Below are positions 1 to 23,825 of a stretch of 35,933 nucleotides of DNA, in pieces; positions within the stretch are counted from its first letter, which is position 1; every line of letters starts with the position of its first letter. The translations under genes and the position numbers were made by a program. This DNA comes from a virus (lineage: Duplodnaviria > Heunggongvirae > Uroviricota > Caudoviricetes): the IMG/VR virus record IMGVR_UViG_2684623171_000008; one strand, 5' to 3'. The notes beneath the pieces are model-generated. The model did no database searches, was not told the origin of the DNA, and saw only the letters and a list, made by a program, of their open reading frames with translations.

Positions 1-141
1 TTACTGCTTACACTGTAAGAACGCCGCAAACTCCGCTCCCCAGAAGCTCATCCGTATTTCGCACAGCGAACCGTGCAGCATCCAGATGATGAGGATTGCC
101 GTCACGCAGAACGTGATGGCCGTAAGCGATTTTTGCGACAT
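1..141 (-). CDS. Hok/Gef-family type I toxin-like small membrane protein (46 aa, MSQKSLTAITFCVTAILIIWMLHGSLCEIRMSFWGAEFAAFLQCKQ)
   Basis: Own translation of the minus strand (ATG 141..139, TAA 3..1); ORF too short for the supplied track. N-terminal hydrophobic helix plus SLCEIR and AAF motifs resemble Hok/HokA. Confidence 0.5.
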   Translation of the reverse strand: MSQKSLTAITFCVTAILIIWMLHGSLCEIRMSFWGAEFAAFLQCKQ

Positions 142-271
142 AGCACTTGCTCCTTTTCCGGAGAGGCGCTAACCTTTCACTTGTCAAGGTAATGCGGTTA
201 GGGCCTCGGTTAAACAGAAATGTTTTCCGGGGCCTTTCCACATCTGGCCTTCGGGTATTCCCTCCGACCAT
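8..271 (-). CDS. Possible Mok-like overlapping frame covering the Hok-like ORF
   Basis: Track ORF of 87 aa in an alternative frame that overlaps the whole hok-like ORF, as mok does in hok/sok loci. No independent support. Confidence 0.2.
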   Translation of the reverse strand: MVGGNTRRPDVERPRKTFLFNRGPNRITLTSERLAPLRKRSKCYVAKIAYGHHVLRDGNPHHLDAARFAVRNTDELLGSGVCGVLTV

Positions 272-331
272 CAGCCGAAAGGCACCCGCGCGTAATCTAT
301 CGCTTTTTTGTTACTCCGGCAATTCTGCCTG

Positions 332-592
332 TTAATTCTGAGGTAAAGGCAAACTCATCTGGTTGTTTCCCCTGTGCGAAGCTGGCAGCTCATTCCACGG
401 GATGCCCTCTGAAGAGTGAACGCCGGGAGCGTGTTTCGATGTGAATTTATGGAAAGCCTCCAGTGTTGAGAAGCATACGCCGCATTCCAGATTGTTACAC
501 TGGTAATATTTTTGCCGCACTGTGTTTGAATCATTTTCCGGACGACTGGTGCGGATACGGGCAGATGCGCCACAAAGCGGACAACGGAACAT
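332..592 (-). CDS. ogr: Ogr/Delta-family zinc-finger late-gene transcription activator
   Basis: Begins MFRCPLCG...YYQCNNLECG, the Cys4 pattern of P2 Ogr; AAGGGAGG RBS upstream; lies downstream of D as in P2. Confidence 0.8.
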   Translation of the reverse strand: MFRCPLCGASARIRTSRPENDSNTVRQKYYQCNNLECGVCFSTLEAFHKFTSKHAPGVHSSEGIPWNELPASHRGNNQMSLPLPQN

Positions 593-752
593 AGCGACCT
601 CCCTTAACGTGATGCTGCCGCTATTCTAAGTTGTACTGACTCAGACTCCAACCGTTAGTCCGCTTTGAATGGTAAATGGAATTGTTTTCTCTTCAGAATT
701 AACTATAAAAATGCATTGTATTCAATAAGTTACCATCTAATGATTTGTTATC

Positions 753-1358
753 TTATTTAGGTTCATCATAAATTTCGTTTCCATCTTCATCCCTATATCC
801 CTGTAGTCCTGTGAGGTAATCAACAAAATATCCATTCCCTAAATCGGCTTCATGTTCTACCTGATTACTTGTAAAGTACTTTTCGGAAGACATATTCAAA
901 TTATTTGGAAGATGTGTCGAAGGCTCTTCACACCATGATGGTAACTTTTCATCAGGCTTCTGATGTCGATTAAAATTGTTATACAAATCTTTAGGGCATT
1001 GATAGCGGCTTATTCCGTCAAATAAAAACTCGTGAGTTACACATGAGGGATAGTGATTATTGATAAATGATTCCACTAAACAGGCAACTTCTTCAGGGTG
1101 CACAGAAAAACACTCACTTTTACTGCCGGTGCTAAGGTGACGTATACGCTTAACACCAGGTTGAGACTCAAGATATACCAAAAGATTAGACTCAATCTCA
1201 TGAACATCACCGTCTATGATGTTATAAGCAGTGTAAATAAAGAACCCTGGGTTCTGGGATGAGACATGTCTATTCTGCAGACCGCGAGTTGTTTTTCCTA
1301 CTTTTGACCATTGGTGATCATTAATATTAGCACCAACATATATCCAGTTATTGCTCAT
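753..1358 (-). CDS. T5orf172/GIY-YIG-like domain protein (cargo gene between D and ogr)
   Basis: N-terminus WIYVGANIN...KVGKTTRGLQNR fits the IY-(N10)-KIGxT-R pattern of T5orf172/GIY-YIG domains; AT-rich gene with its own upstream promoter-like sequence; no P2 counterpart at this position. Confidence 0.55.
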   Translation of the reverse strand: MSNNWIYVGANINDHQWSKVGKTTRGLQNRHVSSQNPGFFIYTAYNIIDGDVHEIESNLLVYLESQPGVKRIRHLSTGSKSECFSVHPEEVACLVESFINNHYPSCVTHEFLFDGISRYQCPKDLYNNFNRHQKPDEKLPSWCEEPSTHLPNNLNMSSEKYFTSNQVEHEADLGNGYFVDYLTGLQGYRDEDGNEIYDEPK

Positions 1359-1394
1359 ACAGTTCTCTTATTATGGGGAAGAAATACCATGAAA

Positions 1395-1422
1395 ATTTTA
1401 TCGTTTATTGGGTTGTGTTCAA
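1395..1422 (-). promoter_or_regulatory. Putative sigma70 promoter for the cargo gene (TTGAAC-N16-TAAAAT on minus strand)
   Basis: Hexamers read on the minus strand, about 35-65 nt upstream of the ATG at 1358. Confidence 0.3.
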
Positions 1423-1510
1423 GAAATTAATGTAGAGTGAATTGTCTTAATGAGCTTAGTGTGCGCAATAAATATACTGACTTAGGTCTGAGTAAGGGCA
1501 TCTAAATTGC

Positions 1511-2620
1511 TCATTCTGTTTCCGCTATCCATTCCGGGATTTTGGCTTCAAGCTCAAGCTGCGTGGTAAAGCCGCTGTTATCAATGGTGTGCTCGGCTTT
1601 TGCAATAATCCAGTCCTGATTGTCGATGTCACTTTTGAAGCCTGTCACCGTGCCATGCATTTCAGGGTAGAGTTCTGCACGTCCACGCGCCAGCGTGATG
1701 GAGAATGATGCGGCTCCGCGTTGTAGTTGCTGCCACTTTGCCGCCGCTGCACGCCTTGCTGCCTGCTCGTTCTGGTAAGTCTTGCGTAACACAAACACAT
1801 TGCCTGCCGCACCTTCCATATAATCACCTTCACGGCTGCTGCTTTTCTCCTTTTTGGGTTTTGGCGGTTTGCGGCGTTTCACGCTGACTTTTTTCTTTTT
1901 CCCGTAATTAAGATCAAGCCAGTAAGCGCGTACCCCCGTATACGCTTCGCGGTCAGCAATGCGGAACTGATGGCGATCGCCGCTGCTGCGTGTGATGGCG
2001 AACGAGGGCAACGGCTGGCCCTGTGCATTCACGCCACCGCCGGGCATGATGAATAACAGATTACCGCTTTTTACCGTGGTGATTGCGCCCAGCATTTCCG
2101 CCATGCGTGTAAGGAAGGACATGTCGCTTTCTTCGGTCTGGTCGGCGTGGTCGATTTCAATATCCATCAGCATTTCGCTGATTTGCGGTTTCAGACCGTA
2201 CCGATGAGCGATGGCGGATACCACGCGCTCAACGGTCACATCATGCCAGGACACCTCACGTTTAACGTTAAATTCATCCCGAAAATCTGCGCTTCTGGCT
2301 GAAACAGTCAGCCTGTCGGGCGGTCCTTCATGAGCAATTTCATCAACAATGTAAGTGCCTTTTTCTGTCAGCGGTTCTCCTTTCCAGCCAATGAGAACCG
2401 TCAGGCGCGCGCCCCGTGGCGGTAGCTGCAACTGACCATCCGCATCATCCAGCGTGATGGCGATCTGGTCTGCCTCAAATCCCCGGTTGTCGGTCAGCGA
2501 CAGGCTCATCAGGCGCTCCGCCACGCCGGACAGCGTTTTACCCTCCGCGAGAATATCAAAATCCGGCATTTTTACGGGGTCTGTGCTCTGACTGAGCAAT
2601 TGCATGGTGGTGTCGGTCAT
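1511..2620 (-). CDS. D: Tail protein D (P2 gpD-like)
   Basis: Resembles P2 gpD from MTDTTMQLLSQ onward; start set at the internal ATG at 2620 preceded by GGGAGG, not the longer track ORF. Confidence 0.85.
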   Translation of the reverse strand: MTDTTMQLLSQSTDPVKMPDFDILAEGKTLSGVAERLMSLSLTDNRGFEADQIAITLDDADGQLQLPPRGARLTVLIGWKGEPLTEKGTYIVDEIAHEGPPDRLTVSARSADFRDEFNVKREVSWHDVTVERVVSAIAHRYGLKPQISEMLMDIEIDHADQTEESDMSFLTRMAEMLGAITTVKSGNLLFIMPGGGVNAQGQPLPSFAITRSSGDRHQFRIADREAYTGVRAYWLDLNYGKKKKVSVKRRKPPKPKKEKSSSREGDYMEGAAGNVFVLRKTYQNEQAARRAAAAKWQQLQRGAASFSITLARGRAELYPEMHGTVTGFKSDIDNQDWIIAKAEHTIDNSGFTTQLELEAKIPEWIAETE

Positions 2621-2777
2621 CTGTTCCCTCCCTGTGCGGCATGGTCGCATGTGCGTGCGGAGGGGGTTACTGCTTTTTGTTGTCGCCGTGGCGGGAGAAT
2701 GGCGCAGGGGTGAGATTACGCGCGTGGTGGGTGATGATTGTTGCCGAATCATTTAACGGATACAAGGGGGTGAAGCT

Positions 2778-3962
2778 ATGAGTGAAACTCGTTTTCATGG
2801 TGCCCGTGTTACGGAAAATACCGACCTGGTAACAGCGATTAACGATGTTGATTCCAGCGTTATCGGTATCGTGGCAACGGCGGATGATGCGGACGCGAAG
2901 CTGTTCCCGCTGAACAAGCCCACACTGCTGACCCGCGTCAATGACGTGCTGGGAAAATGCGGAACAACGGGGACGCTTTATCGTGCGCTTAAGGCCATCG
3001 CAGACCAGGTGAGCACAAAGGTGATCGTCGTTCGCGTGGCTGAACACAAAGAAGAAGACGGAAAGACGCAGGATCAACTGGTTATCGGTGGTTCTGAGGA
3101 TGACGGCAGCTATACGGGGATGTATGCGCTGCTTGTTGCAGAACAGGATGAAAGCATCGGATACCGTCCGCGTATTCTGGCCGCGCCGGAGCTGGACACG
3201 GAGGCGGTGACAAAATCCCTGTGCGTGATTGCGGGTAAGCTGCGCGCGTTTGTGTATGCCTCATGTCACGGCTGTAACACGATGGCTGAGGCGATTACCT
3301 ACCGCCAGAAATTCAACGAACGTGAGGTGATGCTCTTATGGCCGGACTTCATCGCCTACAACCCGAAAAGTGGCAAAAACGAAACGTTCCCCGCGCCTGC
3401 CTATGCGTGCGGCCTTCGTGCGTACATTGACCATGAGCAGGGCTGGCACAAATCGCTGTCCAACGTTCCGGTTAAAAATGTGCTGGGAATGTCCAGGCAT
3501 GTGTTCTGGTCGTTGCAGGCCGAAGACAGTGATGCCAACAGCCTCAACAACAAAGAAATCACGACCATTATTCGTCGCAACGGGTTCCGCTTCTGGGGCA
3601 ACCGCACACCGGAAACGAACGCCTACATCTTTGAGGTGTATACCCGAACCGCACAGGTGCTGGCTGATTCAATTGCGGAAGCGCAGTTTGAAACCATCGA
3701 CAGTCCACTGACGCCTGCGAACGTGAAGGATGTTATCAGTGCCATCAGGGCAAAACTGGATTCACTGGTTACTGCCGGGAAACTGATTGGCGCGTCGTGC
3801 TGGTATGACGTGGTGGATAACAGCACCACGGATTTACGTCAGGGGCGTGTGCGTATTCGCTACAAATATACGCCCGTTCCTCCGCTGGAAGATATGGAGC
3901 TTTACCAGACGTTTACTGATGAATACTTTGATCCCGCATTTGCGGTGTTGGGAGGTGTCTGA
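2778..3962 (+). CDS. FI: Contractile tail sheath protein FI
   Basis: 394 aa; conserved P2 FI stretches (FPLNKP, LRAF.YAS, GWHKSLSNV, RRNGFRFWGNRT, YTPVPPLE). Confidence 0.9.
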   Translation: MSETRFHGARVTENTDLVTAINDVDSSVIGIVATADDADAKLFPLNKPTLLTRVNDVLGKCGTTGTLYRALKAIADQVSTKVIVVRVAEHKEEDGKTQDQLVIGGSEDDGSYTGMYALLVAEQDESIGYRPRILAAPELDTEAVTKSLCVIAGKLRAFVYASCHGCNTMAEAITYRQKFNEREVMLLWPDFIAYNPKSGKNETFPAPAYACGLRAYIDHEQGWHKSLSNVPVKNVLGMSRHVFWSLQAEDSDANSLNNKEITTIIRRNGFRFWGNRTPETNAYIFEVYTRTAQVLADSIAEAQFETIDSPLTPANVKDVISAIRAKLDSLVTAGKLIGASCWYDVVDNSTTDLRQGRVRIRYKYTPVPPLEDMELYQTFTDEYFDPAFAVLGGV

Positions 3963-4474
3963 TGGCTGTACCAAAACATCTTCGCTTTTTTACGCTGTTT
4001 GTGAATGGTGAAAACGAAGTGGGTAAGGTGACGTCCGTCACTCCACCTAAACTGACGCGCAAAACTGAAAGCTATCGTGGCGGTGGCATGATGGGGGCGG
4101 TGAGTATCGACCTCGGTCTTGATGATTCTGCGCTTGATGCGAGTTTTGTCATGGGGGGCGCAGTTCGTGAGCTGTTCCTTAAATATGGCGGCACGATTGA
4201 CGGCACGTTGCTGCGTTTTGCGGGTGAATACTACACCGATGCAGAAAGTGATCTGTATGAAATCGAGATGCGCGGGCGTGTGACGGAAATTGATATGGGG
4301 GAAGCCAAACAGGGCGAAGCCACATCACACACTTACGCTGTCAAAAACACCTACTACAAGCTGAGCGTTAACGATCGTCCGCTGTGGGAAATCGACCTGC
4401 TGAACCACATCTACCGGAAGGACGGCAAGGACATCGTGCCTGATCGCATCCGTTCCGCGCTTGGGCTTGGCTGA
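3962..4474 (+). CDS. FII: Tail tube protein FII
   Basis: 170 aa; ATGA overlap with the FI stop; P2 FII-like. Confidence 0.9.
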   Translation: MAVPKHLRFFTLFVNGENEVGKVTSVTPPKLTRKTESYRGGGMMGAVSIDLGLDDSALDASFVMGGAVRELFLKYGGTIDGTLLRFAGEYYTDAESDLYEIEMRGRVTEIDMGEAKQGEATSHTYAVKNTYYKLSVNDRPLWEIDLLNHIYRKDGKDIVPDRIRSALGLG

Positions 4475-4528
4475 TAAGTAATATGCAGGCGGCGCAGTGC
4501 GCCGCCTCTGACTGAAAGGAGTTTCCTG

Positions 4529-4894
4529 ATGAAAGAGACGAAAAACATCGATACCGAAAACACGGTAGTTGCTGACACTGTGAAAGAAACCAGTGAGCGT
4601 GGCGTAAAACTTACCCAACCAATTGAGCGAGGCGGCGAAAAAATCACGTATGTGGAGATCACCGGGGCTATTGAGCAGGCTGGATCTCTGCGAGATTTGT
4701 CGCTGTCTGATGTGCTGAATCTGAAAGCGGAATCCATGTTTACGCTGCTGTCACGCGTGACATCACCGCGACTGGATGAAGTGACGATCAAAAAAATGGC
4801 ATCCCGTGACTTTATTCAGTTATGTGTGGTTGCCGTAAATTTTTTGAGCGGTGCGGACTCTGGCGGGAAGAACGAACAGGCGACGGAAGCCTGA
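4529..4894 (+). CDS. E: Tail assembly chaperone E
   Basis: 121 aa; AAGGAG RBS; sits between the tube and tape-measure genes and contains the slippery site. Confidence 0.8.
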   Translation: MKETKNIDTENTVVADTVKETSERGVKLTQPIERGGEKITYVEITGAIEQAGSLRDLSLSDVLNLKAESMFTLLSRVTSPRLDEVTIKKMASRDFIQLCVVAVNFLSGADSGGKNEQATEA

Positions 4895-5058
4895 TCACGG
4901 TTGTGTGCTTTGAGCACATAGAAGACTTTGTGGCAGATATTGCCGTTATTTTTAACTGGTCGCCCGCCGAAATCTTCATGATGACGCCCGGCGAAGTGGT
5001 TAGCTGGCGTGAGCGGGCGGCACTTCGCAGCGGGAATGCAGACAATGAAGACTCTTGA
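4529..5058 (+). CDS. E+E' frameshift fusion product (-1 shift at 4840-4846)
   Basis: E frame to the slippery site, then the -1 frame (track ORF 4822..5058) to TGA at 5056-5058. Confidence 0.65.
4840..4846 (+). other. Programmed -1 frameshift slippery heptamer T_TTT_TTG (E to E')
   Basis: Codons AAT TTT TTG in the E frame; the -1 frame stays open to 5058. This is the heptamer used by P2 E/E'. Confidence 0.7.
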
Positions 5059-7852
5059 TATCCGGGTCGCTTTCAGCGCCGTTGACAGGCTGACCCGACC
5101 TGCAGAAAACGCACGCCGCCTGATGGGGCAGTTTGGTGACTCCATCCAGCGAACGCAGGGGGCGATCAAAAATCTCGAGCGTCAGGCGCGTTCATTTGAG
5201 CGCGCCCGCGACGCTGTCAGTAAAGCGGATGCGGGTATCGTGAAAGCACGACGCCAGCTTAACGCCCTTAATCAGTTACAACGCACGGGTACAGTGCTCA
5301 GCGAAAAACAACAAAAGCTGATGCAGCAGTTAAGCACCCGGCTTGAACGCCTGAATGAATCGCGCACACGGGAAATTCAGAAAATGCGGGAGCTTGGCGG
5401 AGAGCTGAAACGCCACGGCATTTCCCTGACAGGCAGCGATAACACCATCCAGCAGGCCATCAGACGCACCGAACAGTACAACAACCAGCTTGAACGCGAA
5501 CGGCAGGCGCTTGCGCGTGTAACGCGGGCGCGTGAGCGGTATTCGCGCGCACAGGAAACAGCGGGAAAACTGAAAACAGGTGGTGCGCTGGCAATTGGTG
5601 CGGCAGCTGCGGGCGGCTATGCTGCCGGGCGTTTTTTGCAGCCTGCGATCGGGTTCGGGAAAGAGATGTCCCGCGTTCAGGCACTGACGCGAATCGACAA
5701 AAACAGCCCGCAGTTTAAGGCGCTGCGTGAGCAGGCGTTAAAACTTGGCTCTGAAACGCAGTTCACCGCAGGCGATGCCGCCAGTGGGCAGGCATTTCTT
5801 GCAATGGCTGGTTTTACTCCGCAGGCCATTCAGGCTGCGCTTCCCGGCGTGCTGAGCATGGCAACGGCTGGCGGTATGGATCTCGGCGAGACGGCGGATA
5901 TTGGCTCAAATATCCTGACGCAGTTCGGCCTTTCTGCTGACCAGATGGACCGGGTCGGTGACACACTTACCGCAGCGTTTACCCGTACCAACACTGACCT
6001 TCGCGCACTGGGTGAAACCATGAAATATGCAGGTCCGGTGGCGGGCAAGCTGGGAATATCGCTGGAGCAGGCCGCAGCGATGGCGGGCGTACTGGCGAAT
6101 ATGGGTATCAGGGGAAGTGATGCCGGGACGGCAATGCGTGCCAGCCTGGCTCGTCTGGCATCACCGCCAAAGGCGGCGGCAGAAGCTCTGAAAGAGCTGG
6201 GCGTGTCCGTCTCTGATGCGAACGGCAAAATGCGCCCGATGGAGGATTTGCTGGCCGACCTTTATAAAGCCACCCGCAAATACGGGGAAGTTGACCGGGT
6301 ATCGTTCTTTAAGGACATTGCCGGAGAAGAGGCTTTCACATCATTTATGGCCCTCGTTGATGCGGCAGGTGACGGCTCCTTACCTAAACTGAGAAAAGAA
6401 CTTGAAGGCGCGCGCGGTGAGGCTGAGCGCACGGCAAAGGTTATGGCCAACAACCTTGACGGCGATCTGAAATCACTCGGCAGTGCATGGGAAGGGTTGC
6501 GCATCCGCATTGCAGATCTGATTGACGGTCCGCTGCGTTCTGTCACGCAGTGGCTAACGCGGGTGGTCTCAAAGGTGACGGCACTGGCGCAGGCCCATCC
6601 TGTACTGACGCGCCAGCTACTGATTGCAGGCGGTGCGCTGCTGGCAGTGACTGCAACCGTAGGCTCGTTGTCGCTTGCTCTTGGTGTGCTTGCTGGCCCA
6701 CTGGCAAAACTGCGTCTTGGTTTTTCCCTCCTGACCGGATCAATGAATGCTGTCAGGCTCCTGCCAGCACTATGGGGAATGGTGACGGGTTCCGTTTCTT
6801 TGCTGGGGGGTGCTATCGGGGCGCTGTTCAGTCCGGTTGGTCTTATCGTGGCTGCGCTTGCCGGAGCTGCCGTTCTTATCTGGAAATACTGGGATCCCAT
6901 CAGGGCATTTTTTGCCGGGGTGTTCAGCGGGATTATGGAAAGGCTGGCCCCGTTGCGCGAAACCTTTGAACGGTTTGGTTCTGTTTTTGACGCAATCGGA
7001 AGCGGGATCAGCCAGGTGTTTAACTGGTTTAAATCGCTGCTGTCACCGATGGAGTCCAGCAAGGAAACGCTGGATAAATGTACCAGTGCTGGCGAGATAT
7101 TCGGTAACGTTCTTGGCGGTGCGTTACAACTTGTTCTGACGCCTGCAAAAATGCTACTGGATACGCTGGCGTGGATACTTGAAAAACTTGGCGTCCTTCC
7201 GGATGAAGCGGAAAGGGCGCGCAAGAAAATCGAAGACGCACAGCGTGCGGCCATTCTTCAGGACAAGGTTGCCTTGCTTCAGGGGGACCTGGCGAAAATC
7301 AATCCGCCGAAGCCTGTGGAAAATGGCAATGGCACCGGAGGTGATAAACCCAAAGACAACAAACCGCTCACAGACAGCAATACCGGTACGCTACGCAGAC
7401 TCAGCAAAATTGCTGATAACACAGGTAAGCTGGTTGATGAGACGAAAAAACGCATTGGCCCCGGCGATATTGTCTTTAAGAACCTGCCCCGCGCACTTGC
7501 TGTTCGTGGGGAGTGGCAGGAGCGGAAGATTGCGCAGGTCAGTAAGCCTGCTTCCGCAATCAACATCACACCCGTGGTCCCGACTCCTCTGCCTCCGGCG
7601 CTGGTCCCTGTTGTTGCGGCCAGCTCCCGCCCGGTGGCGGAGGCCATACGATCGCCAGTGGCATCAGTTCCTGCAACTTCCCGTAACCGGGAGCCTGTTG
7701 TCTCCGGATTTGGCGGTGAAATTCATGTTCATCTGCATAACGTTGTTACGCAGAATCCCCGCGAACTGGCGAAACTGGTCGGTGAAATGGTCAGGGCAGA
7801 ATTGGAACGACGCGACCGTGCCGGACGTGGCAGTTTTTACGATAAAGATTGA
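5036..7852 (+). CDS. T: Tail tape measure protein T
   Basis: About 940 aa; coiled-coil N-terminus, central hydrophobic/Gly-Ala-rich region; overlaps the E' end. Start uncertain (5009, 5036 or 5045). Confidence 0.85.
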   Translation: MQTMKTLDIRVAFSAVDRLTRPAENARRLMGQFGDSIQRTQGAIKNLERQARSFERARDAVSKADAGIVKARRQLNALNQLQRTGTVLSEKQQKLMQQLSTRLERLNESRTREIQKMRELGGELKRHGISLTGSDNTIQQAIRRTEQYNNQLERERQALARVTRARERYSRAQETAGKLKTGGALAIGAAAAGGYAAGRFLQPAIGFGKEMSRVQALTRIDKNSPQFKALREQALKLGSETQFTAGDAASGQAFLAMAGFTPQAIQAALPGVLSMATAGGMDLGETADIGSNILTQFGLSADQMDRVGDTLTAAFTRTNTDLRALGETMKYAGPVAGKLGISLEQAAAMAGVLANMGIRGSDAGTAMRASLARLASPPKAAAEALKELGVSVSDANGKMRPMEDLLADLYKATRKYGEVDRVSFFKDIAGEEAFTSFMALVDAAGDGSLPKLRKELEGARGEAERTAKVMANNLDGDLKSLGSAWEGLRIRIADLIDGPLRSVTQWLTRVVSKVTALAQAHPVLTRQLLIAGGALLAVTATVGSLSLALGVLAGPLAKLRLGFSLLTGSMNAVRLLPALWGMVTGSVSLLGGAIGALFSPVGLIVAALAGAAVLIWKYWDPIRAFFAGVFSGIMERLAPLRETFERFGSVFDAIGSGISQVFNWFKSLLSPMESSKETLDKCTSAGEIFGNVLGGALQLVLTPAKMLLDTLAWILEKLGVLPDEAERARKKIEDAQRAAILQDKVALLQGDLAKINPPKPVENGNGTGGDKPKDNKPLTDSNTGTLRRLSKIADNTGKLVDETKKRIGPGDIVFKNLPRALAVRGEWQERKIAQVSKPASAINITPVVPTPLPPALVPVVAASSRPVAEAIRSPVASVPATSRNREPVVSGFGGEIHVHLHNVVTQNPRELAKLVGEMVRAELERRDRAGRGSFYDKD

Positions 7853-7858
7853 GGAGTC

Positions 7859-8353
7859 ATGGCCATGATGATGATCTACGGCATGTTTGTTTTTGAGCTG
7901 CGCACATTGCCGCATCAGCAGTTACAGCAAAATAAAAGCTGGCGGCATGTGAAAAATGAACGCGTTAACCGTTCAGCAAGCTGGCAGTATATCGGGGCAG
8001 GCGATGATCGCATCGTGCTTTCTGGTGTGCTTTATCCTGAAATCACAGGTGGCGAAGTGTCGCTGTCGCTGCTGACCACGCAGGCGTATACAGGACGCCC
8101 CTGGCCTCTGATTGATGGCGTCGGACAGATTTACGGCATGTATGTACTGACTGAAACGAATACGACCCGCTCCGAGTTTGATCGCTACGGTAAGGCGAAA
8201 AAGATAGAATTTTCACTGACTCTTGAACGCTGTGATGAGGATTTGCGGGAGCGCCTGCAATCCTCATCGTTCAGTGATATGCTGTCCGGCTTCAAAGATA
8301 AGGTCACATCATCCCTTAACAGCGCGGCCAGCTCCGTTAAAGGGCTGTTTTGA
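7859..8353 (+). CDS. U: Tail protein U
   Basis: About 160 aa directly after T; P2 gpU-like. Start may be ATG 7865, which has better GAGGAG spacing. Confidence 0.8.
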   Translation: MAMMMIYGMFVFELRTLPHQQLQQNKSWRHVKNERVNRSASWQYIGAGDDRIVLSGVLYPEITGGEVSLSLLTTQAYTGRPWPLIDGVGQIYGMYVLTETNTTRSEFDRYGKAKKIEFSLTLERCDEDLRERLQSSSFSDMLSGFKDKVTSSLNSAASSVKGLF

Positions 8354-8360
8354 TTAACGC

Positions 8361-8390
8361 AAAACCGCTAATGGTCAGATTAGCGGTTTT
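8361..8390. terminator. Perfect 12-bp-stem hairpin between convergent U and invertase (bidirectional terminator-like)
   Basis: AAAACCGCTAAT-GGTCAG-ATTAGCGGTTTT; overlaps the invertase stop codon; T-rich flank on the plus strand. Confidence 0.5.
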
Positions 8391-8979
8391 CATTTTCCTG
8401 AATCTGCCTGATTGTTTCTTCAGCCTGTATATCGCCTACAGGGTGATAACGATAAATCGTCGATATGCCGATGTCGTAAATGATCGCCAGTTGTTTCCTG
8501 TCATGACCGTTTTTAATCAGCCTCGCTATTTGCTCGTGTTGTTCTTTTGTCAACTTCGGGCGACGTCCGCCAATGCGTCCTTGTGCGCGTGCTGCTGCCA
8601 GCCCGGCCAGTGTACGCTCTACAATTAATTCACGTTCCATTTCGGCTAAAGCTCCCATGACGTGAAAAAAGAAACGCCCCATGGGTGTTGATGTGTCAAT
8701 GCTGTCCGTCAGACTACGGAAATTAACACCTTTTTCCCGCAATTCCTCAATAAGCGTGATCAGGTGTTTCATACTTCTGCCCAGTCTGTCCAGCTTCCAG
8801 ACAACCAGCGTATCTCCTTCTGATAGCGTTCTGAGCAGTTTTTTCAATCCCGGTCTGGCTGATTTCGTTCCGCTGATTTTATCTTCAAAAATCAGTTCAC
8901 ATCCTGCGCACTCCAGCGCGTTACGCTGCAATTCTGTATTCTGGTCATTTGTTGATACGCGGACATAGCCAATAAGCAT
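8380..8979 (-). CDS. Serine-recombinase DNA invertase (Gin/Pin/Cin/Hin family)
   Basis: 199 aa; MLIGYVRVSTNDQNT...VVWKLDRLGRSMKHL...GRIGGRRPKLT, with catalytic Ser region and C-terminal HTH; GGGGA RBS. Confidence 0.9.
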   Translation of the reverse strand: MLIGYVRVSTNDQNTELQRNALECAGCELIFEDKISGTKSARPGLKKLLRTLSEGDTLVVWKLDRLGRSMKHLITLIEELREKGVNFRSLTDSIDTSTPMGRFFFHVMGALAEMERELIVERTLAGLAAARAQGRIGGRRPKLTKEQHEQIARLIKNGHDRKQLAIIYDIGISTIYRYHPVGDIQAEETIRQIQENENR

Positions 8980-9034
8980 GATGGATCCCCTGAATAAAAA
9001 CCGGGGATGATGCCAGTTAGCCGTAATCTCTGCA

Positions 9035-9060
9035 TTTTCTTAAACGTTGGTTTGGGAGAA
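9035..9060. other. Invertase crossover site A (gix/hix-like 26 bp, 12-2-12)
   Basis: TTTTCTTAAACG-TT-GGTTTGGGAGAA; its reverse complement shares 14 identical bp (TTCTCCCAAACCAA) with site B. Confidence 0.65.
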
Positions 9061-9420
9061 GCGGCAAAACGGGATGTGGGGACAGGGGAAAATCAGATAC
9101 CGGACATGGCCTCTTTTGCCAGTGGTGATGGGTGGATGAAATTACCCAACGGGAAAATCCTGCAATATGGTCGTGGTGCGGTTACGCCGACATTATCGAC
9201 GCAAACAATGAGAATTACATTCAGCATCCCTTTCCCCAAAAAAGCGGACTGCGCCATGCTTACTCATTCTGGTGATGGCGGTGCGCCTTTAGGCGCTGGG
9301 CGAGGGTTCGTGATGACTGCAGAAGGCCCAACGTTAACCGGCTTTAATTCTGCTTACAGAACGTCATCAACCAGCGACACGGTATCGATGAATTACAGTT
9401 GGTGGGCTGTTGGTGAGTAA
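9049..9420 (+). CDS. Alternative (currently unfused) tail-fibre C-terminal segment, expressed only after inversion
   Basis: Open frame from site A (..GLGEAAKRDVG...) to the stop at 9420, in the same frame as H relative to the shared GLGE codons; the track ORF start at 9007 is not a real N-terminus. Confidence 0.55.
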   Translation, partial: GLGEAAKRDVGTGENQIPDMASFASGDGWMKLPNGKILQYGRGAVTPTLSTQTMRITFSIPFPKKADCAMLTHSGDGGAPLGAGRGFVMTAEGPTLTGFNSAYRTSSTSDTVSMNYSWWAVGE

Positions 9421-9431
9421 TTTTATTCAGG

Positions 9432-9884
9432 GTGATTTATATGAACGAATATGTTTATAGCGCAAGGCATAATGCTTTTTTCCCTGTGGATATGATTGAT
9501 AAATATAAATCAGAGGGATGGGATTTATCAGACGCTAAGGAAGTAAATCAAAATATTATCAGTGAGTTTATGGCTGAACCGCCACAAGGAAAAATCCGTA
9601 TTGCCGGAGATGATGGGCTGCCTGCGTGGGCAGATATTCCTCCACCCACGCATGAAGAGCTTATTGAAATTACTGAATCAGAAAGACAGCTACTAATTAA
9701 CCAGGCCAACGAATACATGAACAGTAAGCAATGGCCCGGTAAAGCCGCTATTGGTCGTCTGAAAGGTGAGGAACTGGCGCAATATAATTTGTGGCTGGAT
9801 TATCTGGACGCACTGGAACTGGTTGATTCCTCCAGTGCGCCAGATATTGAATGGCCTACGCCTCCGGCAGTTCAGGCCAGATGA
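9432..9884 (+). CDS. Tail fibre assembly chaperone, alternative copy (tfa')
   Basis: 150 aa; C-terminal APDIEWPTPP tail resembles the other tfa (APDVIWPELP); lies inside the invertible segment. Confidence 0.7.
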   Translation: MIYMNEYVYSARHNAFFPVDMIDKYKSEGWDLSDAKEVNQNIISEFMAEPPQGKIRIAGDDGLPAWADIPPPTHEELIEITESERQLLINQANEYMNSKQWPGKAAIGRLKGEELAQYNLWLDYLDALELVDSSSAPDIEWPTPPAVQAR

Positions 9885-10458
9885 CATCCGGCGCGGTGCT
9901 GGTATCTGTTGCCGTCACCGCGTCAATGTAATCCAGCACAGCGTTAAGTCGGGTGGTTTCTGCCTGCGTCAGTTTACGTCCGGCCTGCAATTTCAGTTGA
10001 ATCAGACTGATGGAAGCCATTGCAGTATCAATCAGCGACTGGCGCTGTGCTTCTGCCGCTTCTACTGCGGTACCGTGTTGTGCCTCAGTATCTGTCACCC
10101 ATTTTTCACCATCCCATTTATCGTATGGCGTTAACGGGGCGATAGTGGTTGTATTTTCGGGATAGTCGCCTAGTGCTGTGATTTCTTTGGCATCTCCCGT
10201 TTCGGTGTTATAGACGATTTCACCGCGATGGTCTGACACATATTCCCATGATTTTAAATCCACAGAACGGCAAATTGTATAACCAGCCTTAGATGTAACA
10301 GGAGCGTCTAAACAGGAATATGCTGGAATACCGACACCCACAGCAAGATATTCAGTTGATGCAGAAATATACTCCCGTGTTTCACCATCATAGTTATAGA
10401 CAGTAATATTCCCCGCCTTCGTGGCAATAAGCTCGCCATTTAATACAGCGTTATCCAT
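9856..10458 (-). CDS. G: Tail fibre assembly chaperone (P2 G-like), currently expressed copy
   Basis: 200 aa immediately downstream of H; its 3' end overlaps tfa' convergently by 29 bp. Confidence 0.75.
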   Translation of the reverse strand: MDNAVLNGELIATKAGNITVYNYDGETREYISASTEYLAVGVGIPAYSCLDAPVTSKAGYTICRSVDLKSWEYVSDHRGEIVYNTETGDAKEITALGDYPENTTTIAPLTPYDKWDGEKWVTDTEAQHGTAVEAAEAQRQSLIDTAMASISLIQLKLQAGRKLTQAETTRLNAVLDYIDAVTATDTSTAPDVIWPELPEA

Positions 10459-12092
10459 TATGCAGCCCTCACGATATAGTTAAATGCAATATTCCGTGGA
10501 CGAGTTTCATTTATCCCATATGCTGTTGTTCTCTGATTCCCGACAAAATATCCATTTGGATTCGAAGATACATAGTAATCATCAAAATCAAGTGGACTAT
10601 CAGCGCCCGGAGTCAGACTGGCAATATATCCTCTACCCATAACTTCTGATGCTGGTATTTCTTTTGTACGATAATCACTGACTCTGAATATCTGCCCCTG
10701 ATGAGTATGTAATTCTACCCCTCCATTCTGAAGACTTAGCAAGGCACGTACAGCATCAATACCACGCCCGTCATCCCAGCCACGAATAAACTCACCACGT
10801 AAATCAGGCAATTTATTTGTCGGATAAGCCTTTGCCAGTTCCGGGTATTCTTCAGCAGAAAAAGCGGCACCGTTGCATTTCAGCCAGCCTGTTGGCGGAG
10901 TGGCTGAAGGCCACGGAACAGGCACCCCAACCGGTAATGCAGAGCCTTCTCCCAAACCAAGGTAATCAAGAACTCCCTGAGTGCTGGTTTTACCAAGAAT
11001 GGCACGTCCAACACTTGTCAACGCGGTTAACGCGGCACGATCTGCCCCTGTAAAATATGGGAGTTTATCTGCTGATGTAGCAAGCTCCGCCAGCGCCGTC
11101 AGGGTGGCATCCTTCGGTTGCTTACCCGCAAGCGCGTTAGTCATGGTGGTCGCAAAATTCGGGTCATTGCCCAGCGCCGCAGCCAGTTCGTTCAGCGTGT
11201 TCAGTGCATCAGGTGACGAATCTACAAGTGCGGCAATCGCGGCCATAACGAAAGCCGTGCTTGCGATCTGGGTACTATTAGTTCCCTGTGGCGCTGTTGG
11301 TGTTGTTGGCGTTCCGGTCAGTGCCGGGCTGTTTAATGGTGCTTTCTTGTTCGTTTCATCCATTACCACCTTAACAGCTTTTGGTGTCGCTGCCAGCGTT
11401 TCAGACGTGCTGTTCGTGGCGCTACTGAGCTGAACAATCCCTTTTTGTATAGTGGTGGCGTTCTGGGCGGTATATTTCCCGTTAGCCAGGTCATATGCAG
11501 CCTTAACCGCTTTCGGTGTTGCGGCCAGTGTTTCTGATTCACTGTTAATTGCACTGCTTAACTGAGTAAAACCTTTTGCGGTCAGCGAGGCGTCCGGGTG
11601 ACGTCGTGACTGTTCGTGCTCTGAGATTTTATCATCCACATATTTGCGGGTTGCCAGAACCACAGACGGGTCGATTTTCAGCGTGATAGCTTCGGTGTTC
11701 GTGACAACCAGAATCATGCGGATAGTCTGGGTGCGTCCACTGCCTTCCTGCAACTGCGGTTTGTACGTTTCCGGGCAGTTTGCCACCGCAATGAGTACAC
11801 CTTCATCATCATAAAGACCAATCTCACGGATCCAGAATCCTCCCTCGTTTTCAGGGATGATTTGCTCCGCAATAATCTGGCTCTGATTGTTAGGGTCAAC
11901 ACTCAGAAGATTCAGCGGTGCAATGCGTTTCTGGTTAATCAGTTTTGTTTGTGCAGGGTCTGGTGTTGGTAACACACCATTTGCATCACCAACGGCCATT
12001 TGCGTCAGATTCAGCTTACTGCCGAGCATCGTCGCGTTAGCCAGTCGTGCTGCGCCCTGATTAGTCAGAATGGCGTAGTATTTCACTGTCAT
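10458..12092 (-). CDS. H: Tail fibre protein H (constant N-terminal part plus currently fused variable C-terminus)
   Basis: 544 aa; long stretches close to P2 H (DPSVVLATRKYVDDKISEHEQSRRHPDASLTAKGFTQLSSA...). Crossover site B lies at codons ..DYLGLGEG.. Confidence 0.9.
   Translation of the reverse strand: MTVKYYAILTNQGAARLANATMLGSKLNLTQMAVGDANGVLPTPDPAQTKLINQKRIAPLNLLSVDPNNQSQIIAEQIIPENEGGFWIREIGLYDDEGVLIAVANCPETYKPQLQEGSGRTQTIRMILVVTNTEAITLKIDPSVVLATRKYVDDKISEHEQSRRHPDASLTAKGFTQLSSAINSESETLAATPKAVKAAYDLANGKYTAQNATTIQKGIVQLSSATNSTSETLAATPKAVKVVMDETNKKAPLNSPALTGTPTTPTAPQGTNSTQIASTAFVMAAIAALVDSSPDALNTLNELAAALGNDPNFATTMTNALAGKQPKDATLTALAELATSADKLPYFTGADRAALTALTSVGRAILGKTSTQGVLDYLGLGEGSALPVGVPVPWPSATPPTGWLKCNGAAFSAEEYPELAKAYPTNKLPDLRGEFIRGWDDGRGIDAVRALLSLQNGGVELHTHQGQIFRVSDYRTKEIPASEVMGRGYIASLTPGADSPLDFDDYYVSSNPNGYFVGNQRTTAYGINETRPRNIAFNYIVRAA
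10947..10972. other. Invertase crossover site B inside H (gix/hix-like 26 bp)
   Basis: Plus strand TTCTCCCAAACC-AA-GGTAATCAAGAA; inverted relative to site A with identical central dinucleotide (TT in the H reading direction). Confidence 0.65.
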
Positions 12093-12697
12093 GCGTTTAC
12101 TCTCAGATTATCAATTAAATGAATGGCCGGGGCAGGGAAATAATCCCCTTCGACAATAATGGACTCCGGGGTGTAGGGATAAACCGTCAGGGCATCGCCG
12201 TGATAGCATCCCGTACCAACGAAAATCTTTCCGTTCACACTCAGGCTGATCGCCAGCCCCGTCAGATGGCGACTTACTGGTTTTGCATCCGCAATAAGGC
12301 GCTCAAGTTCCTGATACATTTCATCGGTGATGCCCTGATCAAGTACTCCGACAACAATGCGAAATGTTCCTGGCTCCTCGTTGAGTTGCCACCACTCCTT
12401 TACTTCAATCAGGTAGCCGAGAGGCTCCACGGCTCTTCGCAGTGCGCTGATGGTCCCTTTGTGTCGGTGTATCAGCCATGCATCACGAATTACCTGTCGC
12501 TTTGTCTCTTCCGGCCAGTTGCGATCCCAGCGGTCAACGGAAAACGCCCAGGCGAGATAAGGCAGCAGATGCACCGGGCAGGTGTCCGGCGACCACAGCG
12601 TGTTGAGGTCTACCGGAATGTCTGTAATGCGTGTTCCGACGGCTTCGGCACAACGCATGAAATTGCTGGCTGATGGTGGTAACAACGAATTACTCAT
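12089..12697 (-). CDS. I: Baseplate assembly protein I
   Basis: Follows J and precedes H; start set at ATG 12697 (MSNSLLPP.., GAAGGTGGA RBS) rather than the longer track ORF. Confidence 0.75.
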   Translation of the reverse strand: MSNSLLPPSASNFMRCAEAVGTRITDIPVDLNTLWSPDTCPVHLLPYLAWAFSVDRWDRNWPEETKRQVIRDAWLIHRHKGTISALRRAVEPLGYLIEVKEWWQLNEEPGTFRIVVGVLDQGITDEMYQELERLIADAKPVSRHLTGLAISLSVNGKIFVGTGCYHGDALTVYPYTPESIIVEGDYFPAPAIHLIDNLRVNA

Positions 12698-20574: not shown

Positions 20575-22326
20575 ATGATTCAGGACGCTTTTGTGCGCCA
20601 GCGTGCGCGGCAACTTTACTGGCAGGGTTATCCGCCCGCAGAAATATCACGTCTGATGGGAATAAACCCGAACACGATTTATGCGTGGAAAAAACGCGAC
20701 CAGTGGGATGAAACGCCACCCGTGCAGCGTGTCACGCAGTCCATCGATGCGCGCCTCATCCAGCTTACTGAAAAACAGAATAAAACAGGTGGTGACTTTA
20801 AGGAAATAGACCTGCTGACCCGGCAGCTTAAAAAACTGCATGATGGCCAGCCGGATGCGACGGCCACAGGAAAGAAAGGCCGGGCGAAAAAACTTAAAAA
20901 TCATTTCACGCCGGAGCAGATTGCCGCACTGCGGGAAAAAATCATCAGCAGGCTGGAGTGGCATCAGCGGGGCTGGTTTGACTCCCTGACCCTTTGCAGT
21001 GAAGCCGGGATACGTAACAGGATGATCCTGAAATCCCGACAGATTGGGGCGACCTGGTATTTTGCACAGGAAGCACTGCTGATGGCGCTGCGTGACGATG
21101 TGGCACAACCTTACCAGCGTAACCAGATTTTTTTGTCTGCGTCGCGTCGTCAGGCGTTCCAGTTTAAAAGCATTATTCAGAAGGCCGCGGCTGAAGTTGA
21201 TGTGGAGCTGAAAGGGGGCGATAAAATCATCCTCTCCAACGGCGCAGAACTGCATTTTCTCGGTACTTCTGCTGCGACGGCACAGTCCTACACAGGCAAT
21301 TTTTATTTTGATGAATTTTTCTGGGTCAGTCGCTTTGCTGAACTGCGCAAGGTGGCTGGCGCTATGGCAACCCTCAGCGGGCTGCGACGCACCTACTTCT
21401 CCACGCCATCCACCGAAACGCACGAGGCATACGTCTATTGGAACGGCGACCGCTGGAACGAGAAAAAGGCCGCGCATAAACGCCAGCGTTTTTCTGTGGA
21501 CTGGAAAACGCTGCATAACGGGCTTATCTGCCCCGACCGGACGTGGCGGCAAATTGTCACGCTGGAAGATGTGGTTAATCACGGCTGGAAACACACCGAT
21601 ATTGATGAAATTCGTGATGAAAACACCGAAGACGAGTTCCGCAATCTCTATATGTGTGAGTTTGTCCGCGAAGGGGAATCGGCATTTAACCTGAATATCC
21701 TGATTGGCTGCGGTGTTGATGGATACGACGACTGGAAAGACTGGAAACCTTTTGCTCCCCGCCCGATGGGGAATCGTCCGGTATGGATTGGGTATGACGC
21801 AAACGGCAGCAGTGGAAACGGCGACAGCGGCGCTGTGTCCGTGGTGGTTCCTCCGGCTGTTCCTGGTGGCCGTTTTCGAACGGTGGAAACGCGACGCGTT
21901 CAGGGGCTGGAGTTTGAAGAACAGGCCAGAGTCATTGAAGAGTTCACGTGTCGCTACAACGTGGAACACATCGGCATTGATGCGACTGGCGGGCACGGGG
22001 ATGCCGTTTATCAGATAGTGAAACGGTTTTTCCCTGCTGCTATTCCGTACACCTTCACGCTGTCATCAAAACGGTCGCTGGTACTGAAAATGCTGCAAAT
22101 AATGCGTGCCGGGCGGTGGGAATACGATCGCGCCGAACGCGAGCTGGTCGCGGCCTTTAACGCCGTGCGTAAGGTGAAAACACCGGGCGGCTTTATCACT
22201 TACGAAACGGACCGAGCGAGGGGGATCAGCCACGGCGACCTTGCGTGGGCAACCATGCTTGCTGTCATTAATGAACCGATTGGCGGCGAAGGAGAAAACG
22301 AGCGTTTCACGGTTATGGAGTTCTGA
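20575..22326 (+). CDS. P: Terminase ATPase (large) subunit P
   Basis: 583 aa; P2 gpP-like with ATPase and nuclease regions. Confidence 0.9.
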   Translation: MIQDAFVRQRARQLYWQGYPPAEISRLMGINPNTIYAWKKRDQWDETPPVQRVTQSIDARLIQLTEKQNKTGGDFKEIDLLTRQLKKLHDGQPDATATGKKGRAKKLKNHFTPEQIAALREKIISRLEWHQRGWFDSLTLCSEAGIRNRMILKSRQIGATWYFAQEALLMALRDDVAQPYQRNQIFLSASRRQAFQFKSIIQKAAAEVDVELKGGDKIILSNGAELHFLGTSAATAQSYTGNFYFDEFFWVSRFAELRKVAGAMATLSGLRRTYFSTPSTETHEAYVYWNGDRWNEKKAAHKRQRFSVDWKTLHNGLICPDRTWRQIVTLEDVVNHGWKHTDIDEIRDENTEDEFRNLYMCEFVREGESAFNLNILIGCGVDGYDDWKDWKPFAPRPMGNRPVWIGYDANGSSGNGDSGAVSVVVPPAVPGGRFRTVETRRVQGLEFEEQARVIEEFTCRYNVEHIGIDATGGHGDAVYQIVKRFFPAAIPYTFTLSSKRSLVLKMLQIMRAGRWEYDRAERELVAAFNAVRKVKTPGGFITYETDRARGISHGDLAWATMLAVINEPIGGEGENERFTVMEF

Positions 22327-23372
22327 TGAGCAGAAAAAATAAAAAAGTGCGCATGAGTTCACGCATTGATCTCGCTGATGCGCTCAGGAAAGAATCATCG
22401 CTCAGTGCATTCACATTTGATGGTCCTTATCGCCTGACCGGGCATGACCTGCTGGACAATATGTACTGTGCTGATAACGGGCGGTGGTATGAAACCCCAG
22501 TGGACTGGTACGGTCTGGCAAGAGCTGCCCGGCAAACGTCCTGGCATCAGTCTGCGCTTTACTTTAAGCGCAATGTATTGCTCGGCTGCTATATTCCGCA
22601 CCCGCTGCTTTCCCGGCAGGATTTCTCGGCGCTGGCGCTGGACTGGTTTGTGTTCGGTAACGCATTCCTTGAGCTTCGGAGCAATATGCTCGGCGAACCG
22701 CTTAAATTACGGCACGCCCTGGCGAAATACATGCGACGCGGAAGCGATCTTGAATCATGGTGGTATGTGCAGGATGGCAAGGATGCGTTTCAGTTTCGTC
22801 CTGGCAAAGTGTGCCACCTGATGAATCCGGATATTAACCAGGAAATCTACGGCATGCCGGAATATCTTGGCGCATTACTCTCGGCCAGCCTTTCTCATTC
22901 GGCGGACATGTTCAGAAAACTGTACTACGACAACGGATCCCACGCCGGGTGCATCATCTACATCGGTGCAGCGCAGGTAAACCGCGAAAGCATGGACTCC
23001 CTGAAAGAAACGCTACAGGGGGCACGTGGTGGTGGTGCGTTTAAAAACGTGCTCATTCATGCGCCCAACGGGGGCAAAGAGGGGGTGCAAATTTTGCCGT
23101 TCCAGCAGATCACCGCAAAGGATGAGTTCATGAATGTTAAGGCGGCATCCCGTGATGATGTGCTGGCTGCGCACCGCGTTCCGCCGCAACTGATGGGGGC
23201 GATGCCGGGCGAAAAAAGTGCGTTTGGTGATGTGGAGAAGGCCGCGCGGGTTTACGCAATTAACGAGCTGATGCCCGTCATGGAGGCCATGAAGCACATC
23301 AATGACTGGCTTGGCGAAGAGGTGATCCGCTTTAACCCTTACGCACTGTTAGATACCCAGCCCACATCCTGA
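22326..23372 (+). CDS. Q: Portal (capsid vertex) protein Q
   Basis: 348 aa; ATGA overlap with the P stop; last gene before the presumed cos region. Confidence 0.9.
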   Translation: MSRKNKKVRMSSRIDLADALRKESSLSAFTFDGPYRLTGHDLLDNMYCADNGRWYETPVDWYGLARAARQTSWHQSALYFKRNVLLGCYIPHPLLSRQDFSALALDWFVFGNAFLELRSNMLGEPLKLRHALAKYMRRGSDLESWWYVQDGKDAFQFRPGKVCHLMNPDINQEIYGMPEYLGALLSASLSHSADMFRKLYYDNGSHAGCIIYIGAAQVNRESMDSLKETLQGARGGGAFKNVLIHAPNGGKEGVQILPFQQITAKDEFMNVKAASRDDVLAAHRVPPQLMGAMPGEKSAFGDVEKAARVYAINELMPVMEAMKHINDWLGEEVIRFNPYALLDTQPTS

Positions 23373-23825
23373 CGCGCTTCGCTTGTCTGCTGCTTCGCCG
23401 GGGCATAAAAAATTTATGCCCCGACTCTCCAGCTCCTGTATCAGTCAGATAATTTCACGACGCTTTCCTGCTTATTGCCATCATCGACGGTCAGATTCTT
23501 ACGCAATCCCACTGCGCTGACTGCATGTTCTCGCCGCCTCAGTGCGATTTTGACGGCCTTACCTTTCACCCCATCAAACCAGAATCCCTCACGTATTTTT
23601 CACGCTCAGCGTGAGAAATACGGCCATTCTGTCGTGTCGCTGCGACATCGTTAAGGGAACGCTATTTACCCCCCTGAAACGCGGGCTGTTCCCCCGTCAC
23701 TTGCGCGCAGAAAAAACGCGTTTTTTTGTGCACGTACGGATCCTTGACGGATCCAGCCACCACGCGGGCCGGAAGTACAAAAAGTCGTTCAAAAAAATTG
23801 TGCAAACTTGTGCACTATCGTGCAA

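Follow-up and report, generated by a model that had tools for sequence, protein, structure and literature searches.

We describe a tail-fibre locus in a prophage genome, contained in a 35,933-nt stretch of DNA (IMGVR_UViG_2684623171_000008; hereafter the window, in whose positions all coordinates are given), at which a 1,910-bp segment (9049-10958) is bounded by two inverted 26-bp crossover sites, one next to a gene for a serine DNA invertase and the other inside the tail-fibre gene H. The prophage belongs, by its closest sequence matches, to Escherichia coli O157:H7 and is a P88-like member of the P2 family, and we consider it very probable that the locus is a working tail-fibre switch run by this invertase of the Din family. 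The segment carries two alternative C-terminal tips for the fibre protein, each followed by its own tail-fibre assembly chaperone. An earlier sequence-only reading, made without database searches, had proposed a switch at this place, and its claims are taken up below together with the results that bear on them.

The segment occurs in nature in both orientations, with the breakpoints in the crossover sites. In the unflipped form, the region 8400-11700 is found at 99.7-100% identity in E. coli O157:H7 strains FRIK944, FRIK2533, FRIK2455, FRIK2069 and ECP19-2498. A flipped version of the same region (3,301 nt) was built and searched against complete E. coli genomes, and it was retrieved at 100% identity, in a single piece, from O157:H7 BB24-1 and from RM19259. 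The BB24-1 prophage sits at the same chromosomal place as the unflipped one; in BLAST comparison it was 100% identical to window positions 1-9061 and 10946-31700 in plus-strand alignments, while 9047-10963 aligned on the minus strand. Once 9049-10958 had been flipped back, the BB24-1 sequence agreed with the window at every position over 31.7 kb and with FRIK944 at all positions but one over 43.3 kb. Crossover points at 9046-9061 all reproduce the BB24-1 arrangement, whereas points farther out fail to do so, and this interval holds the predicted core at 9047-9048. As the breakpoints fall within the sites and no substitutions have accumulated, the inversion was precise, site-specific and newer than any point mutation in the element. 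Furthermore, a second prophage lineage (95.3% identity) is seen both ways, NCCP 14541 and CEC03102 differing in orientation from CEC08123 and PA2.

Both crossover sites were located where the sequence-only reading had placed them. The invertase-proximal one (9035-9060, core TT at 9047-9048), separated from the invertase gene by a spacer of 55 bp, reads TTTTCTTAAACG-TT-GGTTTGGGAGAA on the plus strand and TTCTCCCAAACC AA CGTTTAAGAAAA on the minus strand, and the one within H (10947-10972, core AA at 10959-10960) reads TTCTCCCAAACC-AA-GGTAATCAAGAA. They stand in inverted orientation, and reading each from its inner half-site TTCTCCCAAACC gives one asymmetric core, AA, for both, which is what inversion, as opposed to deletion, requires. 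A search of the window with the 16-mer TTCTCCCAAACCAAGG, allowing up to three mismatches, gave two matches, both at the crossover sites, against 0.21 expected from shuffled sequences; the site pair is thus not due to chance. It is also the longest inverted repeat that a repeat finder reported for the region (arms 9044-9061 and 10946-10963, 18 nt, 94% complementary).

For comparison, the sequences of PinE, Cin and Gin and of the pix, cix and gix sites were extracted from the records of E. coli K-12, P1 and Mu. Such a comparison had been suggested with the original proposal, and it revealed that the window sites are pix- and cix-like, with identical AA cores. Read from the inner half-site, the pix site next to pinE of the e14 element is TTCTCCCAAACC AA CGTTTATGAAAA, the pix site in stfP is TTCTCCCAAACC AA GGTTTTCGAGAG, cixR of P1 is TTCTCTTAAACC AA GGTATTGGATAA and gix of Mu is TTCCTGTAAACC GA GGTTTTGGATAA. 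The inner half-site of both window sites is thereby identical to that of both e14 pix sites, and the proximal site matches the invertase-proximal pix of e14 in 25 of 26 bases.

The complete open reading frame (ORF) of H (10458-12092, minus strand) encodes 544 amino acids. Its constant N-terminal part (codons 1-378; 10959-12092, minus strand) lies outside the invertible segment and contains the Pfam Phage_tail_fib N-terminal domain and Phage_fiber_2 repeats, and it is followed by a Collar domain in the variable part. The crossover site encodes ...LDYLGLGE and spans codons 374-382, with the DYLGLGE of the earlier proposal at residues 376-382. Codon 379 starts at 10958, and in the frame 9007-9420 a codon begins at position 9049; therefore, the swap is in frame. 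Flipping 9049-10958 in silico gave an open H of 501 amino acids in which GLGEAAKRDVG...WWAVGE is joined to the unaltered residues 1-378, and this fused H is present as an intact ORF, behind the same constant part, in BB24-1. The proposed exchange of C-terminus and chaperone, including the continuation of the H frame into the alternative one, is thus borne out by a natural genome that is otherwise base-identical. The lengths first given for the two variable parts (163 and 124 residues) were slightly off: counted from the crossover, they are 166 amino acids in the present and 123 in the alternative form, or 162 and 119 if the shared GLGE is not counted.

The two tips belong to unrelated families, Collar/gp37-like and gp53-like, respectively. 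Tip A, the variable C-terminus presumably expressed at present (10458-10958, minus strand, 166 amino acids), consists of the tail-collar domain followed by a T4 gp37-like region; it resembles the collar and needle region of T4 gp37 (PDB 2xgf, E=5.6e-18) and is 58% identical to StfE of e14, with 96% identity over the first 209 nt past the site. Tip B, the presumably silent alternative cassette (9049-9420, plus strand, 123 amino acids), has a gp53-like C-terminal domain (Pfam PF21882, Gp53-like_C, E=7.7e-13), and a PDB sequence search with it gave at best a marginal match (E=0.028). The tips are likely to bind different receptors, as far as their sequences tell. The tip B cassette has no H N-terminus of its own. 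RefSeq nevertheless calls it a separate gene of 136 amino acids, with an ATG start upstream of the site (ATG at 9007/9010). A sigma-70 consensus scan of 8200-12300 returned 8 promoter-like sites, no more than chance would give (5.9 expected). None of them lay at the tip B cassette or shortly before it; the sole plus-strand match inside the segment was in the 3' part of the tip B chaperone gene.

Both chaperone genes carry the Pfam domain Caudo_TAP. The one presumably expressed at present, G (9856-10458, minus strand, 200 amino acids; E=2e-32), is 85.5% identical to TfaE of e14, and a PDB sequence search with it returned nothing useful; the presumably silent one, which would serve tip B and is called G' here (9441-9884, plus strand; E=1.9e-30), is 53% identical to TfaP of e14. 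The sequence-only reading had G' begin at 9432. The gene as such is confirmed, and its start is more likely the ATG at 9441 (147 amino acids, as in RefSeq) than the GTG at 9432 (150 amino acids). The ORFs of G and G' overlap convergently by 29 bp (9856-9884), as had been noticed from the letters. This overlap is kept exactly in e14 (tfaP/tfaE), in a T22 P2-like phage, in 500465-2 and in pro483 (at 3518-3546, 7299-7327, 7512-7540 and 3813-3841 of the relatives' records L005, L001, L002 and L008, respectively); U and U' of Mu do not overlap. The cassettes are a mosaic: G, tip A and G' have e14 homologues at differing identity, and tip B is without an e14 counterpart.

The fusion of a constant part of H to tip B is, by sequence comparison, a real gene elsewhere. 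Several phages, among them Citrobacter phage Omnitron (93.9% identity) and phage pro483 (93.1%), share just the invertible segment with the window (9042/9044-10960 for these two), and their homology stops at the crossover sites. The H of pro483 has a constant part of different build, which passes at ...AYLGLGE into a tip identical to tip B in 122 of 123 residues. G' comes next, then G with tip A on the opposite strand and, after these, an invertase gene.

The invertase gene (8380-8979, minus strand, 199 amino acids) encodes a protein with the Pfam domains Resolvase (E=6e-52) and HTH_7 (E=1e-12), the latter being its C-terminal helix-turn-helix. With identities of 82% to PinE of e14, 75% to Cin of P1 and 73% to Gin of Mu, the Gin/Pin-type enzyme that had been seen beside the segment is readily recognised. 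In an alignment with PinE, Gin and Cin, the catalytic Ser9 in YVRVST, the D64-R65-LG-R68 motif and the GRIGGRRPK arm are all intact. A PDB sequence search retrieved Gin at E=1.5e-91 (4m6f) and E=7.5e-91 (3uj3), and resolvases were far weaker, at about 1e-30 (gamma-delta resolvase, E=1e-31). By these sequence criteria, the enzyme is a member of the Din-family serine DNA invertases (Hin/Gin/Cin/Pin) and is not resolvase-like. As compared with PinE, it has a C-terminal extension of 15 amino acids.

A recombinational enhancer, acting in cis, is likely to reside in the 5' part of the invertase gene. In an ungapped alignment, nucleotides 19-90 of the gene (8890-8961, minus strand) are identical at 57 of 72 positions to the annotated enhancer of P1 cin (NC_005856, 31678-31749); aligning all four invertase genes requires no gaps over their first 120 nt either. 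Within the candidate stretch, two 15-mers of the Fis-like form G-N13-C lie at nt 22-36 and 71-85 (8944-8958 and 8895-8909), with their centres 49 bp apart. Third codon positions are identical to those of pinE in 15 of 24 cases within the stretch and in 49 of 110 in the remaining gene, although the counts are low and the stretch is itself part of the coding sequence. Residue 114 of the invertase is the wild-type Met. In both solved Gin chains it is Val, which we take to be the Fis-independent, activity-raising mutant M114V; with Met114, dependence of the invertase on the enhancer would be expected.

By homology to Gin, Hin, Cin and Pin, we propose the following mechanism. Dimers of the resident invertase would bind the two 26-bp sites, which would then pair, on supercoiled DNA, with an enhancer occupied by Fis within the 5' part of the invertase gene. 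Both sites would be cut at the central AA/TT dinucleotide, and strand rotation and religation would invert the 1,910 bp between them. H and the chaperone gene downstream of it would be read as the end of a late V-W-J-I-H-G operon, so that only the cassette joined to codons 1-378 would be made. In orientation A, that of the window, this would be the H of 544 amino acids with its collar/gp37-like tip, along with the TfaE-like chaperone, and in orientation B the H of 501 amino acids with the gp53-like tip, along with the TfaP-like chaperone. Each virion from a lysogenic culture would carry one of the two tips, and the progeny would be a mixture of two receptor specificities, presumably differing in host range.

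Some points weigh against this proposal. Switching within one clone is deduced from a comparison of finished assemblies, and the expected change of host range between the orientations is argued by analogy. The enhancer lies within coding sequence, and its conservation is not cleanly separable from protein constraint. In addition, the promoter scan gave no convincing site for the invertase, and three places per O157:H7 chromosome match the query, i.e. two besides the one described here. The latter two points would also fit another possible explanation, namely, that the inversion is real but is catalysed in trans by another Pin-like recombinase from the O157:H7 chromosome, the resident gene being dispensable or poorly expressed. 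Precedents exist: Fin of Fels-2 can invert the Salmonella H segment (PMC4122451, a secondary source), PinQ inverts the P segment of e14 (PMC12529663), and the prophage Phi4 of E. coli EC958 inverts with a truncated invertase (PMC4134206). The resident gene is, however, intact, with all the catalytic and DNA-binding residues of Pin, Gin and Cin, and it occupies the canonical position beside the site that so closely matches pix; we therefore regard catalysis in trans as unlikely and catalysis by the resident enzyme as the probable course.

A further alternative concerns the benefit of the switch, the main pay-off of which might fall to the lysogen, if the fibre-tip protein of one orientation were made from the prophage and blocked the adsorption of other phages. 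This would accord with the homology of cassette A to StfE/TfaE, since the e14 inversion product StfE2, formed after inversion by PinQ, blocks adsorption of T2 (PMC12529663). A related conjecture is that the switch doubles as phase-variable protection of the lysogen, with the StfE-like tip A, or the ORF of the silent cassette, occupying outer-membrane receptors at a low level of expression; T2-like phages would then be kept from adsorbing in just one of the orientations, as is reported for PinQ and StfE2 in e14 (PMC12529663). We give little credence to the first of these ideas and hold the second, drawn from the same analogy, to be very improbable as well: H is part of an apparently complete P2-type late operon, with I, J, W and V upstream, and the element looks like a nearly complete phage related to P88, 520873 and 500465-2 and not like a cryptic remnant. 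P2-type late operons generally need Ogr and are silent in lysogens, and silence is expected of this one too. That the switch is a fossil, and the two orientations the result of rare RecA-dependent recombination between the inverted repeats or of assembly artefacts, would agree with the inversion being seen in finished assemblies alone, but is scarcely credible in view of a shared repeat of just some 16-18 bp, which is below the length needed for efficient homologous recombination in E. coli, of breakpoints lying exactly on a canonical crossover site, of flanks and interior without a single substitution over 31.7 kb, which makes the flip very recent, of two prophage lineages each found in both orientations and of several independent assemblies that agree on each state.

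The proposed working switch run by the resident Din-family invertase is of a kind long known. The fibre switches of the Mu G, P1 C and e14 P segments are the textbook cases (Sandmeier 1994, as cited in PMC4134206), and genome-wide screens have found phage tail genes to be a major target of inversion (PMC9881135). The sequence-only reading had likened the locus to the G segment of Mu. The kind of switch is right, and the nearest relative, from the sequence comparisons, is instead the e14 P segment of E. coli K-12 with its invertase PinE (stfP-tfaP/tfaE-stfE). The arrangement there is the same as in the window, with a constant part, a site, a tip and its chaperone, a chaperone and tip on the opposite strand, a second site and the invertase; the inner half-site TTCTCCCAAACC, the AA core, the 29-bp overlap of the Tfa genes and a homologous cassette A are also shared. 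The e14 segment measures 1,797 bp (PMC12529663), as against 1,910 bp in the window, and its StfP has no counterpart of tip B. While e14 is a defective lambdoid remnant with an stfE pseudogene, the window switch is set in an apparently complete P2-type tail operon.

The Mu G segment is similar in architecture and logic, with gin just outside the segment, past the second site, and its site encodes NLGLQE in the frame equivalent to that of YLGLGE in the window. It differs in the gix core (GA/TC as opposed to AA/TT), in its length of about 3 kb and in its tips, which are unrelated to those of the window, save for fibre repeats in the constant part. In the P1 C segment, the cix sites share with the window the AA core and a half-site of the TTCTCTTAAACC type, and S is 48% identical to the constant part of H over 315 amino acids; cin, however, lies upstream of cixL, at the opposite end of the segment from the constant part of S, and the segment is 4.2 kb long.

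Alike in domain layout are prophages of other strains, namely Phi1, Phi2 and Phi4 of EC958 (PMC4134206), those of enteropathogenic E. coli (EPEC) E2348/69 (PMC4272514) and Fels-2 with Fin (PMC4122451), which have 26-bp sites and an adjacent invertase and share with the window the succession of a Phage_fibre_2 constant part, a tail-collar variable part, a minor fibre/chaperone gene and a mirror-image silent allele. The sites of EC958 Phi2, ..ATTACCTT GGTTTAGGAGAA and ..TAAACGTT GGTTTGGGGGAA, closely resemble the two of the window (PMC4134206). All these elements are different prophages with cassettes different from those described here. Inversions of this type have been demonstrated by reads or by polymerase chain reaction in EC958 and in EPEC P2-like prophages (PMC4134206, PMC4272514): those of EC958 were seen as alternative PacBio contigs (PMC4134206), and phase variation in the P2-like prophages of E2348/69 was reproducible (PMC4272514). 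At one EPEC locus there are three repeats and four variants (PMC4272514), as against two sites in the window. A multi-site shufflon, of the p15B Min type or like this three-repeat locus, was considered for the window and rejected, as the search of the whole window for further crossover sites found two only. Among P2-type phages, pro483 (Peduovirus) differs from the window in the constant part of H and in having the canonical P2 gene order; 500465-2 and P88 share the whole backbone (95-96% identity) and gene order of the window, 500465-2 with different cassette sequences.

As an ordinary example of invertase-driven tip swapping, the switch adds little scientifically. The locus supplies two naturally occurring tips for receptor binding, each matched with its chaperone, on a fibre of the P2 type, and the point of fusion (LGLGE) is defined. 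They can be used directly in P2/P4-based delivery vehicles such as those engineered in PMC9942202, where the tips of P1 S' and phiV10 were used and not those of this prophage. Moreover, automatic annotation of the locus can make an intact prophage look degraded. In genomes with the flipped orientation, such as BB24-1 (22188-23693 of record L003), RefSeq splits the intact fibre gene of 501 amino acids into a 'gp53-like' coding sequence of 137 amino acids and two 'incomplete' pseudogene fragments, and in either orientation it annotates the presumably silent, promoterless cassette as a gene in its own right, with an ATG start upstream of the crossover site (9007-9420 in the window).

The element is a prophage inserted after ihfA and extends from the hok/ogr end to the integrase, with a FecCD-family (btuC-like) host gene next to it. 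Phages 520873, P88, 500465-2 and Xuanwuvirus P884B11 match its first 25 kb at 95-96% identity over 83-86% of the length, and Citrobacter phage Shae_phiSM does so over 81%; the annotated matches belong to the Peduoviridae. The genome had been called P2-like from the sequence alone, and this agrees with P88, 520873 and 500465-2 as its closest matches. The RefSeq annotation includes gpU, I, J, W, V, D, FI, FII, GPA, ogr and a P2-family capsid, with Pfam support for GpU, Tail_P2_I, GPD and GPA.

The gene order departs from the canonical P2 one (H-G and then FI-FII-E-T-U-D, all on the same strand). The tail block FI-FII-E-E'-T-U (2778-8353, plus strand) is inverted relative to it and lies on the strand opposite to H and D. 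This layout is common to 500465-2 and P88-like phages, whereas the T22 P2-like phage has the canonical order; the inverted block is thus an old trait of the lineage and no argument against membership of the P2 family. An origin of the block through the invertase was considered and rejected, there being no inverted repeats or pix-like sites flanking 2778-8353 and the layout being shared with relatives. The block converges on the invertase gene, and gene D (1511-2752, minus strand) diverges from FI, with 25 nt between the start codons. For gene D, RefSeq gives a truncated protein of 267 amino acids (1511-2311) and a small pseudogene; the ORF of 413 amino acids (1511-2752) is open, has the length annotated in 500465-2 and contains the Pfam domain GPD over residues 136-393.

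Between the stop codons of gpU (plus strand) and the invertase (minus strand), a hairpin with a perfect 12-bp stem (8361-8390) is predicted by folding (z=-3.6 on the plus and z=-4.2 on the minus strand) and looks like a two-way terminator-like end for the two convergent transcripts. Another hairpin, between the proximal site and the invertase start (8999-9018), was considered as an attenuator and dismissed, being no stabler than shuffled sequence (z=-0.35). Strong RNA hairpins are also predicted just past each chaperone stop, in the antisense of the 3' end of the other chaperone gene (9770-9970). The minus strand of 9770-9870 folds at -38.7 kcal/mol (z=-5.0) and the plus strand of 9870-9970 at -43 kcal/mol (z=-3.6); neither hairpin has a U-tract, and a role in ending or stabilising the transcript in use is conceivable.

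Finally, a Hok/Gef-type toxin gene was found at the ogr end (1-141), and a ParM-type actin-like segregation gene lies beside the replication gene A (24810-25769), with a small partner annotated as a partitioning/stability gene. Judged by their families, these genes amount to plasmid-like maintenance equipment in an integrated phage of the P2 family.

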